Virus record (IMG/VR): IMGVR_UViG_2654587570_000002
Span: 1-35,662 of that record
Strand: one strand, 5' to 3'
Source of the DNA: a virus
Taxonomy: Duplodnaviria > Heunggongvirae > Uroviricota > Caudoviricetes
Length of the DNA: 35,662 nt
Shown: positions 1-33,230 of the stretch, piece by piece
How positions within the stretch are numbered: the stretch's first letter is position 1
Layout: every line of letters starts with the position of its first letter
Translations under genes and position numbers: made by a program
Notes under the pieces: model-generated
The model's database searches: none
What the model was told of the DNA's origin: nothing
The model's input: only the letters and a program-made list of their open reading frames with translations

Positions 1-330
1 AGAATCAGATTAATGACGGCCCAGGCGGAAGCGCAGGAACTTAAAAACGAGCGCGAACGCGGCGAGGTGATTGATACAAAGTTTTGCATCTACGCGATTT
101 CAAAACTAGCGAGTCAGATTTCATCAATCATGGACAGCCTCCCGCTCACAATGCAAAGGCGCTTTCCCGATATAAGGCCGTATATGCTGGATGAACTAAA
201 AAGGGAAATAGCCAAAGCATGTAACGCATGTGCAAGACTTGACGAAAACCTGCCACAGATACTGGCTGATTACCTGATGGAAACTACCGGAAACGCGCCT
301 GAGAAGTTGCTACAGAACAAAGGCGAGTAA
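1..330 (+). CDS. Nu1-type terminase small subunit, C-terminal fragment (5' end lies outside window)
   Basis: Frame is open from base 1; translation ...AQAEAQELKNERERGEVIDTKFCIYAISKLASQISSIMDSLPLTMQRRFPD... resembles the C-terminal half of lambda gpNu1 as recalled; no adjacent large terminase gene follows. Confidence 0.6.
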   Translation, partial: RIRLMTAQAEAQELKNERERGEVIDTKFCIYAISKLASQISSIMDSLPLTMQRRFPDIRPYMLDELKREIAKACNACARLDENLPQILADYLMETTGNAPEKLLQNKGE

Positions 331-403
331 CCGCCGCCCCGTAACGGGCCATAATTCCAGGAAGGACCCGACGACACCAGGCTATCGGAACGATGAGGGC
401 ACA

Positions 404-685
404 ATGACTGAAGCCGAACTACTGGGATTAATCCGCCGCGTCGTCGGAATCAGCCAGCAGCATGACGAACAGGCCACACAGCCGGACAGCGTGACCGCTG
501 AAAATTATGTGCGTGTTGTTGCTGAGGTGATGCGCCGTGATGGTATTGAGCTTAACGGCGTGGATATGCGCAACATACGAACAAGAGTCCTTGAGTTGCT
601 GGCATACCGTCGCCGTTCTCAACAACGGAGGGAGAGCGCGAAAAATACTTACCAGTGGAAGAAGCCGGAACGGTTGCGGCGGTAG
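404..685 (+). CDS. hypothetical protein (93 aa), Arg-rich C-terminus
   Basis: ORF directly downstream of the Nu1-like fragment; no recognisable motif; not similar to a lambda gpA N-terminus. Confidence 0.3.
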   Translation: MTEAELLGLIRRVVGISQQHDEQATQPDSVTAENYVRVVAEVMRRDGIELNGVDMRNIRTRVLELLAYRRRSQQRRESAKNTYQWKKPERLRR

Positions 686-1092
686 ATTCCTGATATTCAG
701 GAAAACCACGAATCTGTGGGGTTTACTGGCGCGGTTACGGCGGTGACACGCACCGAGGCAGAACAATTACCGTAGGTTAAAGCGACAGTATTCACACCAA
801 AGGCAGAAATTAGCGGTTAACGTAACTGACTGATATTTTCGGGAACAGCCAACGGCTGAGGCCGGAGCTATAAAAATAGCTTTGGGTACAGTCCTCAGTT
901 TTGAGGGATGTTAACCAACTGAATAATAAGCAAACCTCAAAATTGAGTTTTGTATCTGCCTGAGTTATTTCTGTGCTAACTTGCTGATATTCCCGATAAC
1001 GTAAAATTGCGTTGGCTGGCAGAGTGCAAATTTGCACGATGGCCTAACCCATTGATTGTTTCGGAAACCTCAATTTGAGGAGGCCGGACAGC

Positions 1093-1127
1093 GTGACGGA
1101 GGGTGACAACCAGTGACACGCCGTGAC
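1093..1127. repeat. four direct GTGAC repeats at exact 10-bp phasing
   Basis: GTGAC begins at 1093, 1103, 1113 and 1123 (cGTGACggag gGTGACaacc aGTGACacgc cGTGACaaaa); one helical turn apart. Confidence 0.5.
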
Positions 1128-1797
1128 AAAAAGACGGTTTAACCATCCATTAAAAATCGACGTGATTTTGTGCTTTCCGTATGAGGTGGCCAGCGTCATT
1201 TTTTAGTGAGAAATTCTGGTCAGGGGCGTTGGCTGAATGGTTATTTTATCGTGCCCATGCACAGGGAGGGGGCGGGTAAAATCTCTGGAGGTGATGCCTG
1301 TCAGGACCGCCGCCTGACCCTTCCTCACATCGCCGCAGGTTCGAAAACTTTTTTTGTGTCAGGTGTGCACGGAATTGATAGGTAAAACCTATATTAAAAA
1401 ATCACGGAAGCCGCGCCATTGCTGGATCAGTCAAAAATTCCACATCTCACGGCAGGCAAAAAAAGCGAATTTTGGGCCAGTTGAGGATAAAAAAGGGCTC
1501 ACTAGTTTTGCACATCCTGGTATCGGGGTCGTCAGCCTCCCGCCAGTAACCAGGTAACTAATCACGCTGGTGGGCATGATGCCGATGCCGGGATCTCGGT
1601 ATCGGTTTATCTGTGATCATCCACCAGCTTGATGACAGATAACAGGGAGTCATAACGATTAAAATTGTATATTTTTGCAGCAAACATTTTTAGCTACACG
1701 TTAAGCTATACGATTTTGAGTTTAAATTTTTTGTATTCAATTAAATCAAATGGTTATATGCACGTTTTGAATACTCTCGTGCCAAAAATCCCTTAAG

Positions 1798-1826
1798 AAC
1801 CAGCCTATTATGGCTGGTTTTTTTAT
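1798..1826 (+). terminator. rho-independent terminator-like hairpin followed by T7 run
   Basis: aaccagcc-tatta-tggctggtt followed by ttttttt; no convincing protein gene upstream on the + strand. Confidence 0.45.
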
Positions 1827-1992
1827 GATTGTTTTTTATGCGGAGAAATACCGGGGAATAATTGGGGTAAAACACCTTTAGGCTATTCACTTAGCCTACC
1901 ACCATCAAAATCTTTCCGAATGTATCCATCTCTTTTTTCTTATGCAGCTAAAACGAAGTCTTGATACTGTTTATTTACACAGATAAGAATAA

Positions 1993-2012
1993 TACTGTCT
2001 ACAAACGCAGTA
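1993..2012. promoter_or_regulatory. LexA (SOS) box-like palindrome upstream of the dinI-like remnant
   Basis: TACTGTCTACAAACGCAGTA fits TACTG-N10-CAGTA; sits 14 bp upstream of the ATG at 2026. Confidence 0.4.
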
Positions 2013-2025
2013 CAAAAGAAGTGTT

Positions 2026-2273
2026 ATGCGTATTGAGATCTCCATAACCAAAGACAAAATGACCAAATGCCAAATGGCGCTGTGGACGCGTTAAAGGAAG
2101 AGTTAACCCAACACATTGGCAAGCGTTATGACGATGTGGAGATGATCGTAAAAGCCACCAGCAACGATAGTTTTTCAGTTAGACATACTGCAGATAAAGA
2201 TTGAGCTAAAACTTTCGTTCAGGAAACTCTGAATGATACCTGAGAGTCTACTGAAGAGTTGTTTGTTCACTAG
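2026..2273 (+). pseudogene. dinI-family gene remnant (frameshifts and in-frame stops)
   Basis: ATG at 2026 gives [11 protein letters not shown] (DinI N-terminus is MRIEVTIAKTS as recalled), then similarity continues in another frame ([22 protein letters not shown]...SVRHTADKD) and after a stop in a third frame (AKTFVQETLNDT-ESTEELFV, compare DinI ...ILQETWESADDWFV). Confidence 0.6.
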
Positions 2274-2628
2274 TTAGCACGTAGGAAATCATTCAATACT
2301 CGCACTATCGGAAGTTCACCAGCCAGTCGTAGCACGTCCTTGCAAACGACGTGCCTACAATTTCAATCACCTCTCACCATCAGTTCTATCAATAATAATT
2401 AAACAGCGCCTAGACAAAATAAATAACAACAAGTCAACAACCTCGACAGGATGCCGATGGGATGATGAAGAGATAAGAAAGAATAACCAGTAAAGCCCTA
2501 AAACGTCAGCGTTCAGACGCGTTTTTTACTTAACCGGTAACAAATACGTTGTATCATAGCAGAATAAAATGATTGTTCTAAATCAGATTAACTCCTCACT
2601 TTTGTACAATGTCGCTTACAGGTATACC

Positions 2629-4518
2629 ATGAAATCCGAGACGCTAACTGTCCAACAACTTTTTCAAGACCGCCGACAATACTGTGTTCCATTCTATCAA
2701 CGTGCCTATGTATGGACTCAGCAAGACCAATGGTCAGCTCTACTGGAGGATATCCTAGAGAAAGCACAATCCCGGCTCTCGGGTACAAAACCAACTCCCC
2801 ATTTCCTTGGTGCGGTTGTACTGGAACCTCAATCAAAAAAAGGATTATTAGGTGTAGATTCCATACATATTATTGATGGTCAGCAACGATTGACCACTCT
2901 TCAATATGTTCTGGCATCCATCCGATTAGCATTACGTGCTACGGATCTTTCCAGCTTAGAGGCTCTCATTTCGCCTTGCCTGAAAAACTCAAACGAAGAC
3001 ACAATGCGAAATAAAGAAGTAGAACGCTTCAAACTGTGGCCAACTTTTCGGGATCAAACTCATTTTATTCAAAGTTTTAATGTTGAAAATATTGACGATC
3101 TCCGGGACGTATTCTCTGATAGTTTCACGCAGCATGGTACGTTGCGTAAGCGTTTTAATCACCCGCCATCACTAGAAGCATTATGTTTTTTTACTAAAGC
3201 CTTTATAAAATGGATTAAAATAGAAAACCACTCACCACAAGAAAATGCTGTAGCTCTAATTGAGGCTGTCTTAACAGATCTGAAACTGGTAAGCATATTT
3301 CTCGAAGCTGAAGATGATGCCCAAATAATTTTTGAAACATTAAATGGGCGAGGGGCGGAACTTCATGCTACGGATCTTATTCGCAACTATATCTTTATGT
3401 GCGCAGAGCATGAAAATATTAATGCTATTGAATTATATGAAAATGAGTGGAAGAGCTTTGAAGATAAATACTGGTCGGAAAAACAACGCCGTGGACGTAT
3501 TAATAAACCACGCATGGAGTGGCTAGTACATGCGACATTGCAATCAGAAAGGCAGCGTGAAATTGATCTGTCTCGCCTTTACAATGAGTATCGTGATTAT
3601 GTAAGTAAGGACTTGTCTTCACAACGAGCAGATCTGCAAGTAAAGCGCCTCAAACAATATGCATTACAATATAAAGAATTGGTTGATGGTTTTGGCACAA
3701 CCCCCATCTCACACTTTGGATATCGCATCGCAGACTATGATGTGACGACACTTTATCCGCTTGCTTTGTTCATTTCGATAGCTAACATCGCTGATGATGA
3801 GAAAGCAGCCATGTATAATGATCTTGTCTCCTACGTAGTACGAAGAGCCGTATGTGGCCTGACGCCAAAGAATTACAACAATGTATTTATGAATGTATTG
3901 CGGCACTTGGCTAAAACGGAAATTTCCAGTGTTGAGTTACGTAATATCCTCAATAACTTAAATGGCGAAGCCTCACGTTGGCCTGGTGACTCAGAATTTC
4001 TCAACGCTTGCATCAATGCTCCACTTTATCCTGGCAGGCTCGACGCACCGAAAATGCGCTCAATGTTAACGGAACTTGAAAGAGAACTTTGTCGCCAAGT
4101 GAAGACCGAAAAGCCTGATGTTCCAAATCTTTCTAATCTCGATATCGATCATCTTATGCCCCAAAGTTGGTATTCCTGTTGGCCTCTCGAAAATGGTCGT
4201 ATGGTGACAAATTCAGATGCTACGGTATTGAACCAAATTGTTCTGTCTGGAACCGATCTTACCCCTGAACAGCTACTGGTAAGGAAACGGCAACAAGCGA
4301 TAGCTACTTTGGGAAATCTAACTTTGCTTAACCTTAGCGTAAACCGTTCTGTTCAGAATGCTGTATTTCTGAAAAAACGTGATGCTCTCATCGTCCACAC
4401 CAATCTACGACTGAACATTCCACTTATAGTTAAGGATAAATGGGATGAGGATGAAATCCTGGAGCGGGGTAAAAATTTGGGGGAAATTGCATTGAAAGTA
4501 TGGCCAAAACACGATTAA
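2629..4518 (+). CDS. GmrSD-like type IV restriction-type nuclease (N-terminal DUF262/ParB-like domain, C-terminal DUF1524 His-Me finger domain)
   Basis: N-terminal FYQRAYVW and IIDGQQRLTTLQ (DGQQR motif); C-terminal LDIDHLMPQSW (DxDH motif); roughly 40% GC against higher-GC tail genes; ORF track opens at 2569 but the ATG at 2629 (MKSETLTVQQLF) is the more typical family start. Confidence 0.8.
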   Translation: MKSETLTVQQLFQDRRQYCVPFYQRAYVWTQQDQWSALLEDILEKAQSRLSGTKPTPHFLGAVVLEPQSKKGLLGVDSIHIIDGQQRLTTLQYVLASIRLALRATDLSSLEALISPCLKNSNEDTMRNKEVERFKLWPTFRDQTHFIQSFNVENIDDLRDVFSDSFTQHGTLRKRFNHPPSLEALCFFTKAFIKWIKIENHSPQENAVALIEAVLTDLKLVSIFLEAEDDAQIIFETLNGRGAELHATDLIRNYIFMCAEHENINAIELYENEWKSFEDKYWSEKQRRGRINKPRMEWLVHATLQSERQREIDLSRLYNEYRDYVSKDLSSQRADLQVKRLKQYALQYKELVDGFGTTPISHFGYRIADYDVTTLYPLALFISIANIADDEKAAMYNDLVSYVVRRAVCGLTPKNYNNVFMNVLRHLAKTEISSVELRNILNNLNGEASRWPGDSEFLNACINAPLYPGRLDAPKMRSMLTELERELCRQVKTEKPDVPNLSNLDIDHLMPQSWYSCWPLENGRMVTNSDATVLNQIVLSGTDLTPEQLLVRKRQQAIATLGNLTLLNLSVNRSVQNAVFLKKRDALIVHTNLRLNIPLIVKDKWDEDEILERGKNLGEIALKVWPKHD

Positions 4519-10695: not shown

Positions 10696-12020
10696 TGCAC
10701 TGGCACCTTCAGAGGGATCACCGGCACAAAGCCGGGATGCGTAATGGCATTACGCCGGATAATGTCCGCGTCACGCGCCGCGTTATCAAACCAGGTCGCC
10801 GCCAGCACCAGCGCGGGTAAAACCTCATCCGGTGTGCGCTGAATGATCCGTGCAGACTGTTCAAGGCGCGTGTTGATATCCGCATTCAGATCTGCTTTCA
10901 CCCGGCGCAGCGCCAGAAACAGCGCATCACTGGTTGTACGGGACAACTCCTTATCAATTGCCGTATTCAGTGTGTCGCGAATGTCAGTCAGTTCTTCCCA
11001 CGTCGGCAGGTCAACCGTGTTTTTCACCGCCGGTGCATTGTTCAGTGCCGGATGCGTGACGGAAGGCCAGCCAGTGCTCTGCGCAGGTGTTGTTGCCTGC
11101 TCCACTGCGGCATTCTGCATCACCGCGGAAGTTGTTGGCGCAGGCAATCGGGTGACGGCATACGCCGCTTCGCTGATTGCGGTCGTACGAAGGGTGCTGG
11201 CAACCACGTTACGCTGCTGCGTCGCCGTGGCGGTGGTTTTACTGTCCGTTTTCCAGACGCCGCGCGGTTGCAGATCGCTGCCGAGGCTGACACCGGAAAG
11301 CGTTTTGATCATGGTGACCAGGTCGCTGGCGTTACCATAAAGGCGTTTCCCGGTACGCCACATTTTCTGCACCTGCTCAACGAAATTTTTGCCTGACGAT
11401 GGCGGCGGCAGAAGTACCGAGATATCCCCCTGCAACAGCCTGGCGGCATCCGATACGGCAGAATCCACCACTTTCATCGCATCAGAAACATACCCAAGCA
11501 TTGTGCTGGCATTACCGACGACGTCGTTCTGCACAAAATCTGCCACGCCATCGATACTGAAACCACTGAAACTGTCACTGATGCAGTCATCCAGTGCAGA
11601 ACAGGATGACATCAGCGTCTGCGCCGTCGCCGCACCTGATGTGGGGTAAGAGAGTTCTCCCGCTTCGACAAACTTCAGGTCAAAGCGGACAATACGCCCT
11701 TCACTCTTCGATGTGCTGACCCGAACCTCCCCGTCAACACAGACTTTCAGCTCACCGTATGTCGGATGGACAAGCGTGCCGGGACCGGGTTTATTCAGCG
11801 CGTCAATCAGGCGATCGCGCTGGTCAAAGCAGTCATCTCCCACCACATAAGCCGTGATGGACGGGCGGAAAGTGATTTTCCCCAGGTCTTCGGCATAGGG
11901 TTTGTCGCGGTTCGGGTATTCGTGCGTTTCCACACGACGACCGGTTCCCGCACTTTCTTCTTCAACCTTAAACGGCACACCGCGAAATGACGCGTCCTGA
12001 AGTCTGTCTTTCCACGTCAT
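10692..12020 (-). CDS. DNA circulation protein (Mu gp43/N-like)
   Basis: Synteny after tape measure; start moved to the ATG at 12020 (MTWKDRLQ...) which has a GGAG 7 nt upstream. Confidence 0.7.
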   Translation of the reverse strand: MTWKDRLQDASFRGVPFKVEEESAGTGRRVETHEYPNRDKPYAEDLGKITFRPSITAYVVGDDCFDQRDRLIDALNKPGPGTLVHPTYGELKVCVDGEVRVSTSKSEGRIVRFDLKFVEAGELSYPTSGAATAQTLMSSCSALDDCISDSFSGFSIDGVADFVQNDVVGNASTMLGYVSDAMKVVDSAVSDAARLLQGDISVLLPPPSSGKNFVEQVQKMWRTGKRLYGNASDLVTMIKTLSGVSLGSDLQPRGVWKTDSKTTATATQQRNVVASTLRTTAISEAAYAVTRLPAPTTSAVMQNAAVEQATTPAQSTGWPSVTHPALNNAPAVKNTVDLPTWEELTDIRDTLNTAIDKELSRTTSDALFLALRRVKADLNADINTRLEQSARIIQRTPDEVLPALVLAATWFDNAARDADIIRRNAITHPGFVPVIPLKVPVQ

Positions 12021-18361: not shown

Positions 18362-19567
18362 TTACGCCGCTGCAATCTTCAGCAGTTTGATGGCCTGCGA
18401 ATCGACCAGCATCCCGCCGGTGCGCTTGGTGGTATAAAAACCGACAAACGGTTTATTGGTGTACGGGTCACGCAGAATGCGGGTGCCGATACGGTCAACG
18501 ATGGTGTAACCCCGTTTGAAGTTACCAAATGCAATGGCTTTCGCATCAGCGGCGATATCCGGCATCTGTTCGTTTTCAGCGATACCGTAACCCGCCAGAG
18601 AGGACGGCTGCCCCAGTTCCAGCCCCGGACGCCACAGATAGTTACCCTCGGTGTCTTTCAGCAGACGGATGGCAAACAGGCTGTTGTTGTTCATCATGAA
18701 CTTCGCGCCAGTGCGGTGTGCCTTACGCAGCGTGTAAATCAGTTTGATAATGGCGTCTGCGGTCACCGCGGTCGCTTCGCCGGATACAATATGCTGAAGT
18801 TTGCCGAACGCCCGGACCTTGTCGGTTTCATCAGTGGATTCATACGCCAGGAACCCTTTCGGCTTCTTGGTACCATCGCCGGTGGTAAAGGCAATTTCTT
18901 CCTGTTCGGCAAATTCGGTTGCCAGCTCGCTGTTGATCCAGGCCTCCACGTTGAAAAAGGCATCATCCAGCATTTTCTGGGTGGCCTGCGGGTTACCGTA
19001 GATTTCCCCCATGAAAGGTTCAATCAGCCCCAGTCTGGAAGTGGCAGTCTGGGAGCGCGCGTCAGTCTCGCCAACCCATCCGGAAGCCGTGCCGCCCAGA
19101 TTCACAAGTTTTTTGTAGTCGGAACCGCCAACGGTGATCACCGTGGCTTCCTGGCGCATCACCACTTCATCTTTCAGCAAGGTCAGAATGTTGCGATCCA
19201 GCGCTTCCGGCACGGCATAGCCACCGTCTTCATCGGTGCCCACCTGTAATGCCTTGCGCTCCAGATCGCGCAGACCATCTTCACGGCCTTTACGCAGGAA
19301 GCCCACAAACGCTTCTTTATGCTCGGTGGCCAGTTTATTCTGCGCACCACCTGCCGGACGTTTCAGCTCAAGCAGCTCTTTTTCAAGGTCGCTTTTGAGA
19401 TTTTCCAGCTCGCTGAGTTTTCCGTTCAGGGTTTCCACCTGCCCGGCAAGTTTGCCTTTTTCCTGCTCAATCGCCTCCACGCGCTTGTCGTTCTTTGCTT
19501 TGAAGTCGTCAAACTTCTGCTGCAGCTCCTGCGCGACCTGTTCGACATCTTTAATATCTACCGCCAT
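18362..19567 (-). CDS. major capsid protein, HK97 fold, with N-terminal coiled-coil delta/scaffold domain
   Basis: 401 aa; N-terminal about 100 aa strongly coiled-coil (…LNGKLSELENLKSDLEKELLELK…), C-terminal capsid domain; follows the prohead protease. Confidence 0.85.
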   Translation of the reverse strand: MAVDIKDVEQVAQELQQKFDDFKAKNDKRVEAIEQEKGKLAGQVETLNGKLSELENLKSDLEKELLELKRPAGGAQNKLATEHKEAFVGFLRKGREDGLRDLERKALQVGTDEDGGYAVPEALDRNILTLLKDEVVMRQEATVITVGGSDYKKLVNLGGTASGWVGETDARSQTATSRLGLIEPFMGEIYGNPQATQKMLDDAFFNVEAWINSELATEFAEQEEIAFTTGDGTKKPKGFLAYESTDETDKVRAFGKLQHIVSGEATAVTADAIIKLIYTLRKAHRTGAKFMMNNNSLFAIRLLKDTEGNYLWRPGLELGQPSSLAGYGIAENEQMPDIAADAKAIAFGNFKRGYTIVDRIGTRILRDPYTNKPFVGFYTTKRTGGMLVDSQAIKLLKIAAA

Positions 19568-19581
19568 CGTATTTCTCCTGA

Positions 19582-20232
19582 TTAGAAGTTCAGATTTTTC
19601 AGTGCATTCAGTGCAGAGCTCACATCCTCAGCGTCGCGCAGGGACAGTGCGCTATAGCCCCCGGCCATGAATGCTTTGGCCTGGGTACGGGAGAGTCCGA
19701 CATCACGCAGGACTCTTTCGATTTTTTTCTGTTCGGGGATTTCCCCGCGGGCCAGCGCGTTCTTGACGTCGCTGATCCGTGCCTCGTCGTTAGACGGGAA
19801 CGTCACCAGACTGACTTCCCAGAGGTCGATTTCTTTCAGCAGAAAGGCTTCTTTCGTCCGGTCGTATTCCCAGTCCTTCAGGACGTACCCAATAGAAAGG
19901 CCGGTTAACGAACCGGCCTTCATGTGTGCATGTGCGCGTTTTGCCAGGGGATCATCATCAATGAGCAACCGCCCCCTGACGTAAAGCCCGACATCGTCTT
20001 CCTTCATTTCGGTGTAAACACCGATGGGCTCATCCATGCGGTGCTGCCAGAGCAGCGCAGGTAACGCTTTTCTGTCACTCCACGCCCGCAGGGAAGCAGC
20101 AAATGCCCCGGACATCACCACATCATCGTGGCTGTCCTTTACACCAAAGACGGAGCCATACCCTTCAAACTCACCGGAGTCACTGACAGATTTCAGACTC
20201 AGCGGTACATCAAGACGTTGTTTCGTCTGCAT
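19582..20232 (-). CDS. prohead protease (HK97 family)
   Basis: FEGYGSVFGVKDSHDDVVMSGAF motif; start chosen at the ATG at 20232 with GAAGGA RBS (track start 20268 has none). Confidence 0.8.
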   Translation of the reverse strand: MQTKQRLDVPLSLKSVSDSGEFEGYGSVFGVKDSHDDVVMSGAFAASLRAWSDRKALPALLWQHRMDEPIGVYTEMKEDDVGLYVRGRLLIDDDPLAKRAHAHMKAGSLTGLSIGYVLKDWEYDRTKEAFLLKEIDLWEVSLVTFPSNDEARISDVKNALARGEIPEQKKIERVLRDVGLSRTQAKAFMAGGYSALSLRDAEDVSSALNALKNLNF

Positions 20233-21451
20233 TGGCGTTATCCTTCTGCTTACCGGCTTTACTGCCATCGGAGGGTTTCGTGGTCATGTTCATCGGTGTG
20301 AGATAGACATCCCCACCGGGACGCGGATTCATATCTTCCAGGTCGCGGCAGTCATTGGGAGAGTAAATTCCCCAGTTAATCCCGGTGGCGTAGGCTTCAA
20401 AACGGGACTTCATATCCCCGCGCAGTAACGCCCCGGCGTTAAATTTGGCGTAATAAACGCCCTGCTTACTTTTTCGTACCAGTCCGGTGTTGATCCGCTG
20501 TTCGATGCGGGTCAGATACGGCACCAGTGAATAGTTGATAAATCCGAGCCCCAGTTCTTCGATATTGTTGAAGGTGGCGCGATCGGTGTTCTGCACCATG
20601 TGCAACGGTACCCGGAACAGACGACAGATTTCTTCAAGCTGAAACTTGCGGGTTTCCAGGAACTGGCTGTCCTCGGCGTTCAGCGCCATCGACTTCCAGT
20701 CCAGCCCCATCTCAAGGATCATCGGGCGGTGAGCATTGCCAAGCCCGGTGTGACGCTCCTCAAAATCTTTCTTCAGGCGCTCATAAGCCTGATCTGACAG
20801 CGTCTGCTCTGTACGCAACACACCCGACGTCACCGCACCATTGCTGAACAGTCTGGCCCCGTGCTCTTCAGTCGCTGCCGCCAGCGATATTGCCTCGCGG
20901 GCATAGGCGACGGGATTCAGCCCCACCAGTCCGTCCAGCGTCAGCGTGCGCACATGCCAGATATCCTCCTGGCTCAGCACATCCGTGGAGCCGTCCGGGA
21001 ATGTGACCTGATAGACCGGCTCCCAGCTACTGTTAAGCTTCGGTACCACACAACCGGGATCGACGGGCAGCAGTTCAGCCACTTCGCCAAATGCTTTCAC
21101 TTTGTAGGCGTAAAAGTTTCCCCTCAGGCACAGACAGGTGACCACCAGCTCCCAGAACTCCTGCGGCGTCATATAGCCATTGGGATGCGTGGAGATCAGC
21201 TTATGCAGACGTTCGCCGGTGGCTCTCTGTTTCAGGCTGCCGTTCAGGTGATACAGATTGCAGGGCAACATCCCGACCGACTCTGCCAGCACCCTGACGC
21301 AGGAAAAAACCGCCGTCAGTCGCATGGCCCGCTGGCTGCTGATCTGCTTTCCGGTATAGGTGTCATATGATAGCCCGATAGCCTCCGCCAGCTCTGCTGG
21401 CGTGGTCACCGGTGCGTCACTTTTTCGTTGAAATAATCCCGAAAAGAACAC
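20210..21451 (-). CDS. portal protein (HK97 family)
   Basis: 413 aa, position between large terminase and protease. Confidence 0.85.
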   Translation of the reverse strand: MFFSGLFQRKSDAPVTTPAELAEAIGLSYDTYTGKQISSQRAMRLTAVFSCVRVLAESVGMLPCNLYHLNGSLKQRATGERLHKLISTHPNGYMTPQEFWELVVTCLCLRGNFYAYKVKAFGEVAELLPVDPGCVVPKLNSSWEPVYQVTFPDGSTDVLSQEDIWHVRTLTLDGLVGLNPVAYAREAISLAAATEEHGARLFSNGAVTSGVLRTEQTLSDQAYERLKKDFEERHTGLGNAHRPMILEMGLDWKSMALNAEDSQFLETRKFQLEEICRLFRVPLHMVQNTDRATFNNIEELGLGFINYSLVPYLTRIEQRINTGLVRKSKQGVYYAKFNAGALLRGDMKSRFEAYATGINWGIYSPNDCRDLEDMNPRPGGDVYLTPMNMTTKPSDGSKAGKQKDNANADETTS

Positions 21452-21633
21452 TATTTACCTCCGCCGAAAGACGGCTGTGTACGGTCGAGATATCGCGCCA
21501 CCAGCCACGACCAGAACAGACACAACGCCCCGGCAACAACAAACCCCGCCGGGGGATAAATCAGCCAGGCACCATACGCCAGCAAAAGCGCCCCCAGCAC
21601 GCCCACCAGAGGCGCGAGAATCAGCATGATCAT
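21451..21633 (-). CDS. small membrane protein (60 aa)
   Basis: Almost entirely hydrophobic, two predicted TM helices; between large terminase and portal genes. Confidence 0.35.
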
Positions 21634-21644
21634 AATTACCTCAG

Positions 21645-23378
21645 TTAAAGCGAGCGGATCCCATAGGACTCAATGTGGTCAGACAGCGTGTCTTCTTTCT
21701 CGTACAGCATGGCTCTGCCAACCGCCATAATCAGCGCAACTGCACCATCGATTTTGTTTTCCGCCTGCTCTTTGACGGGCTTCACCACATCATCGTTACC
21801 CGGAATGGTTTTGCCGACCACGTTGCCGATACACCAGGTCATGATGGGATTGCCATCATGATGAAAGCGCCCCGATTCAATTGCCGCTTCCAGCTCTTTC
21901 ATCGGGTCGGACATGTTGGTGTAGTTCTGAATGATAGTGATGGGGTTCAGGTCTTCATCAGCAAGGTCATGTGACAACCCGGTCGCCCCGAAGGGGTCGA
22001 TGGGTGACTCACTGACCGGGCTGATTTTGTTCGCCGCTTTGGCCTCCTCGAGGATGTAGCGATAATCCACCTCCGCACCATCGGTAACGGTCAGAACGCC
22101 CATTTCCACCCATTTCTGAAAGCGTTCGGCTGTCCGGCGATCTTCATTTTTCTCGACGCTGTACACCGTGTCATACGGTACCCAGAAACGCGGGGCCACA
22201 CTGTAGTAATGCGTTTTACCGTCAATCTCGCGGGTATAAAGTCGCGCCATGCTGTTCATATCCAGCTTACGCGCCAGGTCAAAGGCCAGAATGCACGGCT
22301 GCCCCTCGAACTGCTCAAGGGTCAGTGATTTATCCTCGCAGCTCTGCCAGCTCACCAGGTTGAAATACGCCGAACGCGCCGACACCCAGATATTGAGGTG
22401 TTTTGTTTTAAAGACGTTTGCCAGACGGGCGTTATTTTTCGCACGCTGCTGCTGACTTAACAAAAATTCGCGATAAACCGACACGCCAATATTTGGATTG
22501 GCTTTTTCCAGCACCTGCGGGTCGGTCCAGTCGTCACCTTCATCAACGGTATAGATGATCCCGAACAGTTCATCGTTAGGCACCGAGCCGTTGAGCATCT
22601 CGATGACTTCCCGCCGTTTGTCGTAGCACGGCCCCTCAATGTTGTACCCGGCGGTAGTGATAGCCCACATCAGTGGCTGACGTCGCGCCCCCATCCCGGT
22701 AAGCATCGTGGTGTAAAGCGCATCTGTGGCGTGCTCGTGATATTCATCCACCACCGCACAGTGGGGTGATGAACCATCACCGGGGTTACCGATCAGCGGT
22801 TCAAAACGCGCACCATCCTCCGGACGGTTCATGTTTGAGGCGTTAACCTCAATCCCGAACGCTTCCGTCAGCATGGGTGTGCGTTTACACATCAGTCTTG
22901 CCGGACGAAAGACTTCCCATGCCTGTTTCTCCGTCGTGGCACCGGAATACACTTCCGCGCCGAACTCGTTATCACAGGCAAAACAATACAGGGCGACACC
23001 GGCAGAGATTGCCGATTTGCCGTTCTTACGGGGGATTTCGGTATACACCTCACGGAAGCGGCGCAGCCGGGAGCCTTTATTGACCCAGCCAAACGCGCAG
23101 CAGATCACAAAGAGCTGCCACGGCTCCAGCGTGATGGGCATCCTCTTAAATGCCCACTCACCCTTAGTGTGCGGCAACAGCTGAATAAATTTCGCGGCCC
23201 GTTCAGCCAGGTCCTTGTCGAAGCGGTAACGAAACGACTTACTTTTTTCCGCCATCAGGTCATCAAGATGGCGCTGGCAGGCCTGAATCACAAACTGGCA
23301 GGCCACAATCTTTCCGCGCACGACATCACGGGCATACTGATTGGCAGCATTTACGTTGGGGTAAGATTTCCGGCTCAT
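21645..23378 (-). CDS. terminase large subunit
   Basis: 577 aa; ATPase and nuclease regions typical of Terminase_1 family; overlaps small subunit stop. Confidence 0.9.
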
Positions 23379-23878
23379 GATTCGATGATTTTCAGAAACG
23401 GGTTAGTGGCTTTCTTCTGCCCCGCCAGGCCAATCAGACGCTGGCGGCTGCTGGGGTCGAGTCCGAGCATTGCCCCCGTACTGCTCATCTCGGACTCCTG
23501 TTCTTTTTTGGCGGTCAGCTCCGGATTTTTGACCCTGCCGCCCATTGCACCGGTGATGGTGTTGCCCTGTCTGGCAATATTTTTCACGGCACGTCGCCAG
23601 AACTCGTAGGCCACGCACCACCGCTCAAGCACCGCGAGGTCAGTCACGCACAGCAGGCCCTGACCGCAGAGTTCTTTAGTTGTCAGTTGCCACATGATCG
23701 TAGCGAGAGGGAGATCTTCTTCAGCGAACCACTCCGGTGGCTCAACACCTTTGATGGGCGTAAAAACAGGTTCATCTTTATTCAGGGCTCGCTTGCCGGG
23801 GTTTCCGGCCAGCGCCTTGCGCGCCGTTGGCTTGGGGCGACGCCCGGAACGCCCCGCCGTTCCAGCCATATGCGGCAC
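23375..23878 (-). CDS. terminase small subunit (P27 family)
   Basis: 167 aa, basic N-terminus ([21 protein letters not shown]...), directly upstream of the large subunit. Confidence 0.8.
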
Positions 23879-23918
23879 TCCTGGTTAAATTTCATTTTTC
23901 GCGGGTATAAAAAAACGA

Positions 23919-23967
23919 TGGGGCGGGCAGTCCGGAAGACGTCAGGTCACAGGGATTTGACCCGCCC
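23919..23967. repeat. GC-rich inverted repeat between HNH and small terminase genes (candidate cos/packaging site)
   Basis: GGGGCGGG at 23919-23926 and CCCGCCCC at 23960-23967 flanking a 33-bp spacer. Confidence 0.3.
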
Positions 23968-23994
23968 CTCCCCTCTGGCAGTGGGAACTGGTTC

Positions 23995-24345
23995 TTACTT
24001 CAGCCGTTCACGGGCCGTCTTCGCCTTATGACACAGCCAGCACAGACTCTGCAGATTACTGTCGGCATCAGAGCCGCCATGCGCTTTAGGAATGATGTGG
24101 TCAACGGTTTTCGCCTCACGCACCACACCAGCACGCAGACATAACTGACATAAACCTTTATCACGCTTCAGCACACGCGCGCGGATAACATCCCACTTCG
24201 AACCATAGCCGCGCTGGTGACGGGATTGTCCTGGCTTGTATTGTTTCCAGCCTTCGCTTTTGTGGCTTTCGCAGTAGCCTGACGGGTCAGTCGTGGTATT
24301 GCGGCAGCCGCGAACGCGGCAGGCTTTTGGGATTCTAGGGGGCAT
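23995..24345 (-). CDS. HNH endonuclease (terminase-associated)
   Basis: Cys-rich N-terminus and DHIIPKAHGGSDADSNLQSLCWLCH HNH motif; immediately upstream of small terminase. Confidence 0.85.
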   Translation of the reverse strand: MPPRIPKACRVRGCRNTTTDPSGYCESHKSEGWKQYKPGQSRHQRGYGSKWDVIRARVLKRDKGLCQLCLRAGVVREAKTVDHIIPKAHGGSDADSNLQSLCWLCHKAKTARERLK

Positions 24346-31798: not shown

Positions 31799-32292
31799 TA
31801 AGCCCCCACGTAATTCCCTGACAGATACCACTCTTCACCCGATGCAGCGCGCTTGCTGCTTTTCCGTAAGCACCGCTCACGACGCGCCAGAAAATTGTTT
31901 CGTTCTGGCTGGGAGTGGCTTTCACGGAATGCCGCCATCCACACGGTTGCAGCACGACGGTATAAGCCCCTGGACTCCAGTTCTTCAGCCTGGCGGGTCA
32001 GGCACAAAATCACCCGTGGATCGTTAGTGCCGACATAGAAATTGCGCACAGGTCTGGTTTCACGAACTGGTTGTGGTTCCGGATCCTGCGCTCTCTCAGT
32101 CAGGCGCGGGAAATGTCTGTGTGTATCTCCTTCACAACGGTGAGCCACACGCCCACTCTGACGTAACTTGCTTGCTGACTGCAGAACGCGCTGCCGTGAG
32201 TAACCTGCAAAAGCATCCGCAATGTCTCCGGAAGTACAGCCCGGATGGGCTTCAATGAATTTCTGAACGTCATTCAAAAGACTCATGCTCAC
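31798..32292 (-). CDS. PerC-like transcriptional regulator (tentative)
   Basis: LTRQAEELESRGLYRRAATVWMAAF resembles the PerC-family core as recalled. Confidence 0.4.
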   Translation of the reverse strand: MSMSLLNDVQKFIEAHPGCTSGDIADAFAGYSRQRVLQSASKLRQSGRVAHRCEGDTHRHFPRLTERAQDPEPQPVRETRPVRNFYVGTNDPRVILCLTRQAEELESRGLYRRAATVWMAAFRESHSQPERNNFLARRERCLRKSSKRAASGEEWYLSGNYVGA

Positions 32293-33230
32293 CCCCTGAA
32301 TCCTGCCGGGATCTGGCTGTAGTCCACATTGTCGTAACTGGCTTTGAAGTACGGGTCTTCGCGTTTTTCTGTGTACGTGCTGACGGACGGCGATAAGCGC
32401 AGGGAAAGCTCATCCCATTTTTCCCGCAGCTTCGACGGGCTGAGCACGTTACGGCACCAGAACGGATCGCGGCTGACGCGGCTGTACATCTCGCAGATTT
32501 GTTTGTGAGTACGACCATCCTGCACACACATCAGGCGAATTTCGTTTGCCCAGGCTGTCCAGTTCGGTTCTTTGGGACGAACCACCTCGCCGTCACATTC
32601 GGCAGCCTGCTCGTACAGGGCGATGATTTTTTTCCAGAGCCACTGTGCGCAGGTCAAATCATCCTGCGTCCCCCACTGGCGCTTTTTAGGGCTGAATACA
32701 ACCGCATCAGGATGGCGAGTTAAAAAATCCTGTTCAGCCGTCTGCGTGTCCGGTTGCGAAGCGTCCGGACGAGAAGGTTTTTTATCTGACGGATCATGTT
32801 TTGATTTTACTGACGGATCCCCGCCAGATTCTGACGGGTGAAAACCCGCTTTTTTGCCTGATTTCGACGCATCAAATTTTGACGGGTCAGATTTTGATGC
32901 GTCAGATTTTGACGGGTCAGAATCTGACAGTTGAGAAAATGCCGCTGCCTGAAGCTTCGCAACGTTAAGCTGATAAACATTCGACGCATTGCGGTTACCC
33001 TGGCGACGCGCCTTACGCGTTAACCAGCCTTCTGCTTCCAGCCGTGCGATAGCCGTTCTGACGGTACTCATCCCCGCGCCAATCTGACGGGCAATGGTTT
33101 CAATTGATGGCCAGCACACACCTTCGTCATTACTGAAATCAGCCAGGCGGGCCATAATTGCCACGCTGGATAATTTCATGCCTGATGCAGCGCAACCATC
33201 CCATACATAGCCGGTTAATTTAGTGCTCAT
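32289..33230 (-). CDS. replication initiation protein (O-like), contains origin iterons
   Basis: N-terminal HTH-like domain; internal repetitive SDSDPSKSDASKSDPSKFDASKS linker encoded by DNA iterons. Confidence 0.6.
   Translation of the reverse strand: MSTKLTGYVWDGCAASGMKLSSVAIMARLADFSNDEGVCWPSIETIARQIGAGMSTVRTAIARLEAEGWLTRKARRQGNRNASNVYQLNVAKLQAAAFSQLSDSDPSKSDASKSDPSKFDASKSGKKAGFHPSESGGDPSVKSKHDPSDKKPSRPDASQPDTQTAEQDFLTRHPDAVVFSPKKRQWGTQDDLTCAQWLWKKIIALYEQAAECDGEVVRPKEPNWTAWANEIRLMCVQDGRTHKQICEMYSRVSRDPFWCRNVLSPSKLREKWDELSLRLSPSVSTYTEKREDPYFKASYDNVDYSQIPAGFRG
32784..32931. repeat. iteron array (candidate replication origin) inside the replication gene
   Basis: TGACGG(G/A)T at 32786, 32810, 32831, 32879, 32909 plus repeated GATTTTGA. 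Confidence 0.5.

Follow-up and report, generated by a model that had tools for sequence, protein, structure and literature searches.

A phased GTGAC repeat array in the variable 3' end of EcCICFT073-type PICIs and its possible mimicry of helper phage origin iterons

To our knowledge, the interference of satellites with their helper phages is protein-based and proceeds through capsid remodelling, through the action of Rpp or Ppi on the terminase, or through immune systems carried as cargo. The lambda origin in gene O is the classic example of an origin inside an initiator gene, and 'Per' is an origin-derived phage resistance of Lactococcus. Ectopic lambda origins block lambda replication (PMC4488673). 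PICIs of the EcCICFT073 type have been described previously (Fillol-Salom 2018 and 2019; PMC6092414, PMC6739421), and the induction, replication, packaging, and interference of EcCICFT073 have been demonstrated experimentally. The origin of a Gram-negative PICI consists of two sets of iterons around an AT-rich stretch and is located 3' of rep (PMC6092414).

Here, we analyze an array of four GTGAC units at exact 10-bp phasing in the right end of an element of this type, found in a stretch of viral DNA of 35,662 nucleotides (this whole stretch is referred to below as the window). The array has features in common with several described systems. PICI and SaPI origins, in which two sets of iterons flank an AT-rich region immediately 3' of rep, contain short direct repeats that bind an initiator, and the likeness of the array to them lies in its short direct repeats. 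The origins of the satellites studied here are located 3' of rep, and their iterons (CTGTCTACC, AAGTGGGC, or AAGTGAG) co-vary with the type of Rep; the array, which is ~4.5 kb away, does not change with Rep type, and we therefore rejected it as a candidate for the PICI origin. Like the arrays bound by excisionases and by Cox, Apl, or Vis proteins, and like lambda-type arm sites, the array is made of direct repeats about one helical turn apart, but those sites have a fixed position in the att arm and are required by every element that uses the recombinase, neither of which is true of the array. The cosB R sites, R3-PICI, and pac sites are protein-binding elements near cos, and the array is likewise near a cos in some relatives of the element; however, in many cases no cos is close to it, and it shows no dependence on TerS type. 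R3-PICI, which is bound by Rpp, is furthermore a single site located 48-65 bp from the cosN of a lambda-type cos, whereas the array is repeated and lies at a variable distance. The only arrays we found to be similar to that of the satellite are the two iteron clusters in the initiator gene of lambdoid phages.

The carrier element and its boundaries

Positions 700-1826 of the window match 19 E. coli chromosomes at 99% identity. In strain MEW, the same stretch forms the right end of a 10.8-kb island located at the tRNA-Pro gene proL, between yejM and yejO. The MEW island contains, in this order, genes for an integrase, AlpA, an Icd-like protein, a DUF4222 protein, a D5_N primase-helicase, and SSB; these are followed by genes for a lambda-E-type capsid protein, a gpD-type decoration protein, a second AlpA-like protein, a Nu1-like small terminase, and ORF93, and then by ~1.1 kb of non-coding DNA. 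Based on the gene order, the presence of an Rpp homolog in the terminase slot of a relative (L007; RppC, 6HLK, E = 2e-31), the two lambda-type cos sites, and the right-hand layout of EcCICFT073, we classify the element as an EcCICFT073-type PICI, and these comparisons assign window positions 1-1790 to the right end of such a PICI inserted at proL. The carrier has the features by which this type is recognized, namely int, alpA, pri/rep with an ori on its 3' side, lambda-type cos sites around rpp/terS, a size of ~10-11 kb, and a specific att. It shares with PICIs of this type the gene order int, alpA, DUF4222, pri/rep, ori, ssb, MCP-E, gpD, cos1, rpp/terS, cos2, and ORF93. It differs from EcCICFT073 in having a full-length Nu1-like TerS where EcCICFT073 has Rpp, and in bearing an additional HK97-type cos and the GTGAC array.

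In the window, the 3' part of the Nu1-like small terminase gene, which occupies the rpp slot, is found at positions 1-330 of the plus strand (Phage_Nu1, E = 8.6e-24). A truncated, inverted lambda-type cos is present at 326-370 on the minus strand, where CGGGTCCTTCCTGGAATTATGGCCCGTTACGGGGCGGCG is followed by a break; it is a remnant of cos2, complete copies of which are present in relatives and in EcCICFT073; in relatives, two inverted lambda-type cos sites flank the terminase slot. The last gene of the PICI, ORF93 (404-685, plus strand), encodes an all-alpha protein of 93 amino acids (phrog_1561) that has no Pfam family and belongs to a narrow family. ORF93 has no sequence match in the PDB, and no DNA-binding fold could be recognized in its predicted structure (pLDDT 71, best PDB match at E = 3.3). 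A copy of an HK97/phi467-type cos region is located at 1263-1392 on the plus strand, with a G-box at 1264-1276 and the equivalent of the HK97 genome end, GACCGCCGCC, at 1306-1315. In HK97-like phages (phi467, 606R7, 813R8, and mEp235), the intergenic region between HNH and terS has ~80% identity to this segment; the PICI therefore bears a helper-type HK97 cos besides its lambda-type cos sites. Up to position ~1019, a sibling element (L139) is the same as this one; it then has a different cos, like that of the resident prophage of the window, and no array.

The attR core, CTCTCGTGCC, is at 1774-1783 on the plus strand and is identical to the 3' end of proL. Predicted arm-type repeats, TAGCTACACG and AAGCTATACG, are located at 1691-1712 on the same strand. 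At the opposite end of the element, three to five copies of these repeats (TAGCTAYACG) are found just upstream of int (L001 2478-2555); the repeats are replaced by the variants GGTGTAGT or TAGTTATACG in relatives with a different att-proximal sequence. Since the TAGCTAYACG repeats are present at both ends and change with the att-proximal sequence, they are likely the arm sites of the integrase. Homology to the PICI stops at ~1826, and homology to the neighboring prophage starts at 1770-1782; from these two limits, the junction between PICI and prophage is placed at 1770-1826, ~650-700 bp to the right of the array. The neighboring prophage end starts with a terminator-like hairpin directly past the att core (1795-1822, plus strand) and contains a DinI-like pseudogene, a GmrSD-type gene, and tail fiber genes.

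These assignments change the picture given in a preliminary description of this DNA, according to which the array could mark a junction between two prophage remnants in a gene-free stretch. A junction between mobile elements does exist nearby, but its location is not the array. Positions 686-2568 do contain only short ORFs without family matches, but the stretch is not a uniform block: PICI 3' non-coding DNA (686-1790) comes first, the att core next, and the prophage end last.

The GTGAC array as a mosaic non-coding cassette

The four GTGAC units (GcGTGACggagGgTGACaaccaGTGACacgccGTGAC) occupy positions 1093-1127 of the plus strand and start at 1093, 1103, 1113, and 1123. When up to two mismatches were allowed, the 35.6-kb window gave a single instance of the four-unit pattern and 100 dinucleotide-preserving shuffles gave none, so the 10-bp spacing noted in the preliminary description is borne out by the motif scan and the shuffles. 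The word GTGAC is not itself enriched (80 sites on both strands, versus 67 ± 8 expected). As the frequency of the word is not raised and the shuffles never give the array, the signal is the phasing. Elsewhere in the window, phased occurrences are limited to two isolated GTCAC pairs, and in five satellites, their int ends and promoters included, no phased GTGAC or GTCAC pair was found anywhere outside the array.

The array falls within a 3' untranslated region, and a promoter scan detected no sigma-70-like site adjoining it on either strand. A search of Rfam with window positions 1-2700 gave no match at E <= 1. The folds predicted for the array region of three homologs differ from one another, with z-scores of -0.3 to -1.8 and nothing shared or significant. 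A structured RNA is not supported as the nature of the array, which is a conserved, unannotated, and apparently undescribed motif.

To the left of the array, positions 823-1092 of the plus strand contain four boundary units (TAAC..TGAT..TTYYCGR.AAC; at 823, 912, 977, and 1045) that are copies of the sequence usually found after the ORF93 stop codon. A/T-centered palindromes are present among these units at 893-906, 935-947, 1004-1013, 1024-1037, and 1068-1080. Two of them had been reported at about 940 and 1069; both are present, with coordinates slightly corrected to 935-947 (CCTCAAAATTGAG) and 1068-1080 (CCTCAATTTGAGG), and a third, CCTCAGTTTTGAGG, is the one at 893-906. The palindromes belong to the repeated boundary units of the variable 3' region of the PICI. 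To the right of the array, an A-tract and the conserved right boundary AAAAAGACGGT (1128-1138, plus strand) are common to both types of right flank. This boundary outlasts deletion of the array, as three relatives (L131, L142, and L143) retain AAAGACGGTTTAACC without any array. The remainder of the mosaic module is at 1139-1244 on the plus strand, the limits of homology being positions 8-160 of a query that spanned 1085-1250. It contains a hairpin (1181-1199) followed by a T-run (1199-1204), which together are likely the terminator of the late operon; the hairpin has a perfect 7-bp stem in relatives L006 and L054. In another relative (L349), a deletion joins the last array unit to a GTGAC within the terminator hairpin.

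A BLAST search with the module (window 1092-1244) covered 5426 complete E. coli genomes, of which 250 (~5%) contain it, and identified it in no phage record. The matches in E. coli genomes are in satellites only, and the sole match listed that lies within a gene (H145) is in another satellite. In a sample of loci anchored on ORF93, the array is present in 7 of 52 PICI loci and absent from the other 45, and EcCICFT073 itself does not have a GTGAC array. The array is therefore accessory, because it is missing from both EcCICFT073 and most of the sampled loci. Its carriers are PICIs inserted at proL, at yrbL, next to phoQ, and next to mdtJ, among which the array is essentially unchanged. The replicase that accompanies it is either a D5_N primase or a RepA-helicase, the integrases differ too, and its capsid and packaging partners include lambda E/D plus Nu1, Rpp, a ClpP-MCP fusion, and complete capsid-forming (cf-PICI) modules. 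The distance from the array to the att end varies among relatives from about 320 to about 650 bp. The array is invariably located downstream of ORF93 and ahead of the terminator hairpin of the operon, and the gap between ORF93 and the array (6-407 bp) is filled by boundary units. In the commonest arrangement, the array starts 6-16 bp past the ORF93 stop codon; here, ~400 bp of boundary units are in between. These observations show that the array is an accessory cassette, discrete, optional, mosaic, and non-coding, that belongs to the variable 3' end of the PICI.

Comparison of ~17 sequence variants of the array showed that it contains 3, 4, or 5 units and that, without exception, units are gained and lost as whole 10-bp blocks. 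Polymorphism across these variants affects 7 of 20 spacer positions, as opposed to 1 of 25 in the cores (Fisher p = 0.015). The DNA flanking the array is of at least five kinds on the left and two on the right. The drift of the spacers, the preservation of the cores, and the copy changes by whole units argue that the GTGAC cores and their phasing are under selection, as judged from the sequence variants. In the DNA downstream of ORF93 in 52 sequence types, GTGAC is the only periodic pentamer array with at least four copies, and no other iteron-like array was found there.

Comparison with the origin iterons of lambdoid phages

The four-unit pattern was scanned in one genome per species, and most of the matches listed were unrelated high-GC repeats. 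The enterobacterial matches listed are a Shigella PICI, a GTGACC array in Scandinavium (L033), and an E. albertii prophage. In the E. albertii prophage, the arrays are inside the replication-initiator gene, and an Entomomonas prophage is arranged alike. Including phages 813R8 and 606R7, the GTGAC repeats in the initiator genes of these four recur every 10-11 bp and form clusters of 4+5, 6+5, or 4+4 units. In 813R8 and 606R7, the two phages examined, there are clusters of 4 and 5 (C)GTGAC(A) units, one cluster being flanked by an AT-rich repeat, which amounts to a lambda-style origin within the initiator gene. Apart from the initiator-gene clusters, the 38-kb record of 606R7 contains no phased GTGAC array. 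An N-terminal domain of the initiator is shared by phages 813R8, 606R7, 640R1, 689R5, Evi, and Tritos, and no satellite protein was found to resemble this (DNA-binding) domain.

The array and the phage iterons have in common the GTGAC(A) core, the period (10 bp in the array, 10-11 bp in the phages), the presence of 4-5 copies, and an A/T-rich tract on one side. The resemblance of the repeats themselves is confined to the core of 5-6 bp, the phasing, and the copy number. The full consensus, the two clusters, and the AT-rich region of a phage origin are not found in the satellite. The phage iterons read tGTC-GTGAC-At (tGTCGTGACAt), whereas the spacers and flanks of the satellite units differ, and C precedes the core (position -1) in 23 of 28 phage units versus 5 of 13 satellite units (A or G in the other satellite units). 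The array is a single cluster, with a short A-tract and no convincing AT-rich unwinding region, and, unlike lambdoid origins, it is neither within nor adjoining an initiator gene. A candidate in which the array is a fossil of a phage O gene was rejected, as BLAST of the module against phages gave nothing. The record vB_EcoS-569R6 (11 kb) was considered as a packaged satellite and rejected, as it is a partial phage record.

An initiator of the GTCAC type is encoded in 2078 of 5426 E. coli genomes (38%), so its co-residence with the array says little. Four of 15 Escherichia phage records with the cos type copied at 1263-1392 have this initiator, but these four phages, which share both cos and initiator types, are closely related and amount to one or two independent observations. 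One genome (NZ_OZ040963.1) contains a PICI like that of the window together with a prophage that has a lambda cos, a lambda-type head, and a GTCAC-type initiator; by similarity, this prophage would be the kind of helper that the E, D, and Nu1 genes of the PICI resemble. Among the matches listed, the array and the GTCAC-type initiator overlap in 3 cases versus ~0.7 expected, a comparison of partial lists that is uninformative. The resident prophage of the window has a different initiator, with 15-bp iterons.

Candidate binders and implications

Since no protein shared by array-bearing satellites could be tied to the array, its binder is most likely supplied in trans. The cores are all on one face of the helix, a layout suited to several copies of one protein side by side, and a candidate for this protein is the initiator ('replisome organiser', O-like) of a common class of lambdoid phages. 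Given a binder in trans, and given that the only such sites in a plausible helper are its origin iterons, we propose, tentatively, that the array mimics the origin iterons of a helper and would bind the initiator of that helper, acting as a decoy or a hijack. Upon induction and amplification of the PICI, the array would become multicopy and could soak up the helper initiator, thereby interfering with the helper; alternatively, it may draw the replication machinery of the helper to satellite DNA. A more specific form of this proposal, in which a swappable, non-coding, iteron-mimic cassette titrates or captures the helper initiator after PICI amplification and constitutes a natural, DNA-only origin decoy, is somewhat more doubtful. 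The proposed mode would be that of the interference by ectopic lambda origins, in which extra initiator-binding repeats titrate the initiator (PMC4488673). The lambda-ori and 'Per' decoys are engineered plasmids with whole origins, whereas the array is a natural, iteron-only satellite cassette with a putative decoy role. The lambda-O-like palindromes to the left of the array could be a second cassette of the decoy kind, aimed at lambda-type initiators. The fallback of the preliminary description, that the array is a binding array for another regulator, is compatible with everything found.

Other accounts of the array place its binder in the satellite or dispense with a binder altogether. Binding of ORF93 or of an AlpA/Vis-type winged-helix protein, with the array serving as a roadblock or terminator aid in the late operon or as a regulatory site, seems rather unlikely to us. 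It would fit the invariable position of the array past ORF93 and before the terminator hairpin, the 6-16 bp that separate it from the ORF93 stop codon in the commonest arrangement, and the long basic C-terminal helix of ORF93. It would also fit the behavior of excisionase-type proteins such as lambda Xis, P2 Cox, and 186 Apl, which bind direct repeats one helical turn apart. However, ORF93 occurs without the array in EcCICFT073 and in 45 of the 52 relatives, its gap to the array ranges from 6 to 407 bp, its model offers no recognizable DNA-binding fold, and the five satellites searched have no second GTGAC site near their promoters, so the array is not clearly tied to ORF93. An array without function, in which slippage made a 10-bp tandem repeat that now hitch-hikes in a recombination-prone satellite 3' region, is an unlikely account. 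It would explain why the array is optional and missing from the experimentally competent EcCICFT073, why its copy number varies by units, and how the deletion in L349 between the last unit and the hairpin GTGAC arose, and all copies are indeed homologous by descent. This account is at odds with the kept cores and drifting spacers (p = 0.015), with the retention of the module between at least five left and two right flanks, and with the spacers themselves (GGAGG, AACCA, and ACGCC), which differ so that the units are not one 10-mer, unlike the product of recent slippage.

The nearby cos raises the question of packaging, and we give little credence to the array being a specificity element of the HK97/phi467-type cos, a satellite-specific, cosB- or termination-like site that would assemble a terminase-associated protein. 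In the ORF93-anchored sample, a phi467-type cos past ORF93 is found solely in array-bearing elements (3 of 3 loci of the unbiased set, representing one arrangement type; 6 of 6 distinct types overall), but physical linkage, or a shared adaptation to a single helper lineage, would explain this co-occurrence equally well. The array is 85-235 bp upstream of cosN in these elements, with two different intervening sequences, and ring-shaped small terminases contact phased repeats, e.g. at pacL of SPP1. On the other hand, 22 of 28 array-bearing types do not have such a cos nearby, and in cf-PICIs the cos is 2.4 kb off, between HNH and terS. The cos regions of the helper phages are free of GTGAC repeats, and the lambda-type cos1 and the Rpp site are accounted for at other places. 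A terminase site would be expected at a fixed spacing from cosN and to co-vary with TerS or Rpp; the array is instead 85-235 bp or ~2.4 kb from cosN and occurs in five TerS situations (with Nu1, DUF1441, Rpp, the P27 family, or none). A host factor is a very improbable binder, whether it be a response regulator of the OmpR/PhoB family or MatP. Members of the OmpR/PhoB family bind tandem direct repeats of 10-11 bp, and the tandem 10-bp GTGACA units resemble OmpR sites, the half-site of which is GTTACA; the half-site of matS, GTGAC, is the same as the array core. MatP nevertheless requires inverted half-sites, and the units of the array are direct repeats, with no exact match to a known box, no promoter-like site adjoining them on either strand, and a location in a 3' untranslated region. 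The notion of the preliminary description that the units are integrase arm-type sites, marking the att arm or the junction of two prophage remnants, can for practical purposes be abandoned. The array and attR do share one non-coding stretch, and the integrase has an arm-binding domain (Arm-DNA-bind_3), but the comparison with the int end that had been suggested revealed the proL core and the TAGCTAYACG repeats there and no GTGAC repeats, and it is TAGCTAYACG that occupies both ends; the att core is at 1774-1783. Arm sites would be at a fixed position within ~200 bp of the core and would co-vary with the integrase, whereas the array is ~320-650 bp from the att end; it is also unchanged at four insertion sites while the att-proximal repeats change between elements, and most relatives do not have it.

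These analyses correct the map of the region by assigning positions to its att core, arm repeats, and junction, and they identify the element as a relative of EcCICFT073 with three cos-like sites. Even if the proposal of an iteron-mimic decoy is wrong, they define a conserved, unannotated motif that is present in ~5% of E. coli genomes. If the proposal is correct, the unannotated 3' ends of PICIs would hold functional cassettes, and exchange of these 3'-end cassettes appears to fit them to different helpers, which is evidently the case for cos cassettes. The conflict between satellites and their helpers would then gain a DNA-only layer, in the form of a short non-coding repeat bound by a helper protein.

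Mosaic junctions around the GTGAC array

Between ORF93, the last gene of the phage satellite (PICI), and the GTGAC array (1093-1127), the window contains four boundary units (823-1092), starting at positions 823, 912, 977, and 1045, each of which combines TAAC..TGATATTYYCGR.AAC with a small palindrome. These units are copies of sequence usually located 3' of the ORF93 stop codon, and a partial repeat of the final ORF93 codons is present at 727-747. Mosaic breakpoints among relatives fall at about 977, 1019, 1088-1092, 1130-1138, and 1244-1262. Positions 1043-1093 are also 88-89% identical to the interior of prophage Rha/KilAC antirepressor genes.

In the capsid-forming PICI L349 (3009-3060), a deletion joins the final array unit to a GTGAC within the downstream terminator hairpin (GTGAC followed by CAACGCCATTTTTT). 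The array repeats themselves thus act as recombination points. In many relatives, a 15-bp perfect palindrome, TGGTCATAATGACCA, is found 3' of the array module, and in others it is 5' of the array (L006 9140-9160, L345, and L300; compare window 1236-1250). The 5' end of a short hydrophobic ORF (MTTQTIEATIAIIVTVGAFPP...) overlaps this palindrome in some relatives.

Palindromes and origin-like repeats

The A/T-centered palindromes CCTCAGTTTTGAGG, CCTCAAAATTGAG, and CCTCAATTTGAGG (window 893-906, 935-947, and 1068-1080, respectively) look similar to the iterons bound by the lambda O protein. When the whole window was searched, this pattern was confined to the 3' region of the PICI. EcCICFT073 carries CCTCAAATTGAAGAGG and CCCCCATTGGGGG (L353 3730-3745 and about 3830), and the origin of a CFT073 prophage (L353 29240-29330) contains the lambda iterons CCCTCAAAACGAGGG and CCCTCAAATTGGGGG. 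The likeness of the PICI palindromes to lambda O iterons could be due to chance.

Inside a winged-helix replication gene of the resident HK97-like prophage (32289-33230, minus strand), a 15-bp sequence (GATTTTGACGGGTCA) is directly repeated four to five times, at 32860-32934. These iterons, which differ in type from GTGAC, presumably constitute the prophage's own origin within its initiator gene. Dense GTGACC and AGTGGC arrays surround an AT-rich stretch at positions 1300-1900 of L033, a 14-kb Scandinavium hiltneri contig with high coverage (about 1170x), and this region looks like an origin. Family searches with the proteins beside these arrays gave no informative match.

Packaging genes and cos sites of the PICI and the resident prophage

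The HK97-type packaging and head module of the resident prophage occupies 18362-24345 on the minus strand, where it encodes an HNH protein (23995-24345), a Terminase_4 small terminase (23375-23878), a large terminase (21645-23378), and an HK97-fold capsid protein (18362-19567). Its cos site is in the gap between the HNH and small terminase genes and has a G-box, GGGGAGGGGCGGGTCAAATC, in common with phi467. At the prophage end, a DinI-like pseudogene (2067-2204) and a GmrSD-type (DUF262) restriction-like gene (2569-4518), both on the plus strand, directly follow the att core; the same block adjoins ssrA in strain SFE8.

In the window PICI, the rpp slot of EcCICFT073-type elements is occupied by a gene for a full-length Nu1-like small terminase (window 1-330, plus strand; L001 11089-11631). 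The C-terminal region of this protein is similar to that of the small terminase of prophages with lambda-type heads (L352), and the protein might bind the helper large terminase directly rather than via the helper small terminase.

Three cos-like elements were found in the window PICI: a lambda-type cos1 upstream of the small terminase gene (L001 about 10938-11000, just outside the left edge of the window), a lambda-type cos2, truncated and inverted, between that gene and ORF93 (326-370, minus strand), and an HK97/phi467-type cos in the 3' non-coding region (1263-1392, plus strand). This mixture of cos types suggests that the PICI is able to use two different kinds of packaging machinery. When the sibling PICI L139 (IMG/VR) was set against window 686-1400 and 23880-23985, it had the window sequence up to about 1019, followed by a different cos cassette similar to the cos of the resident prophage, and it lacked the GTGAC array. 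Cos cassettes appear to be exchanged between PICIs so as to match helpers.
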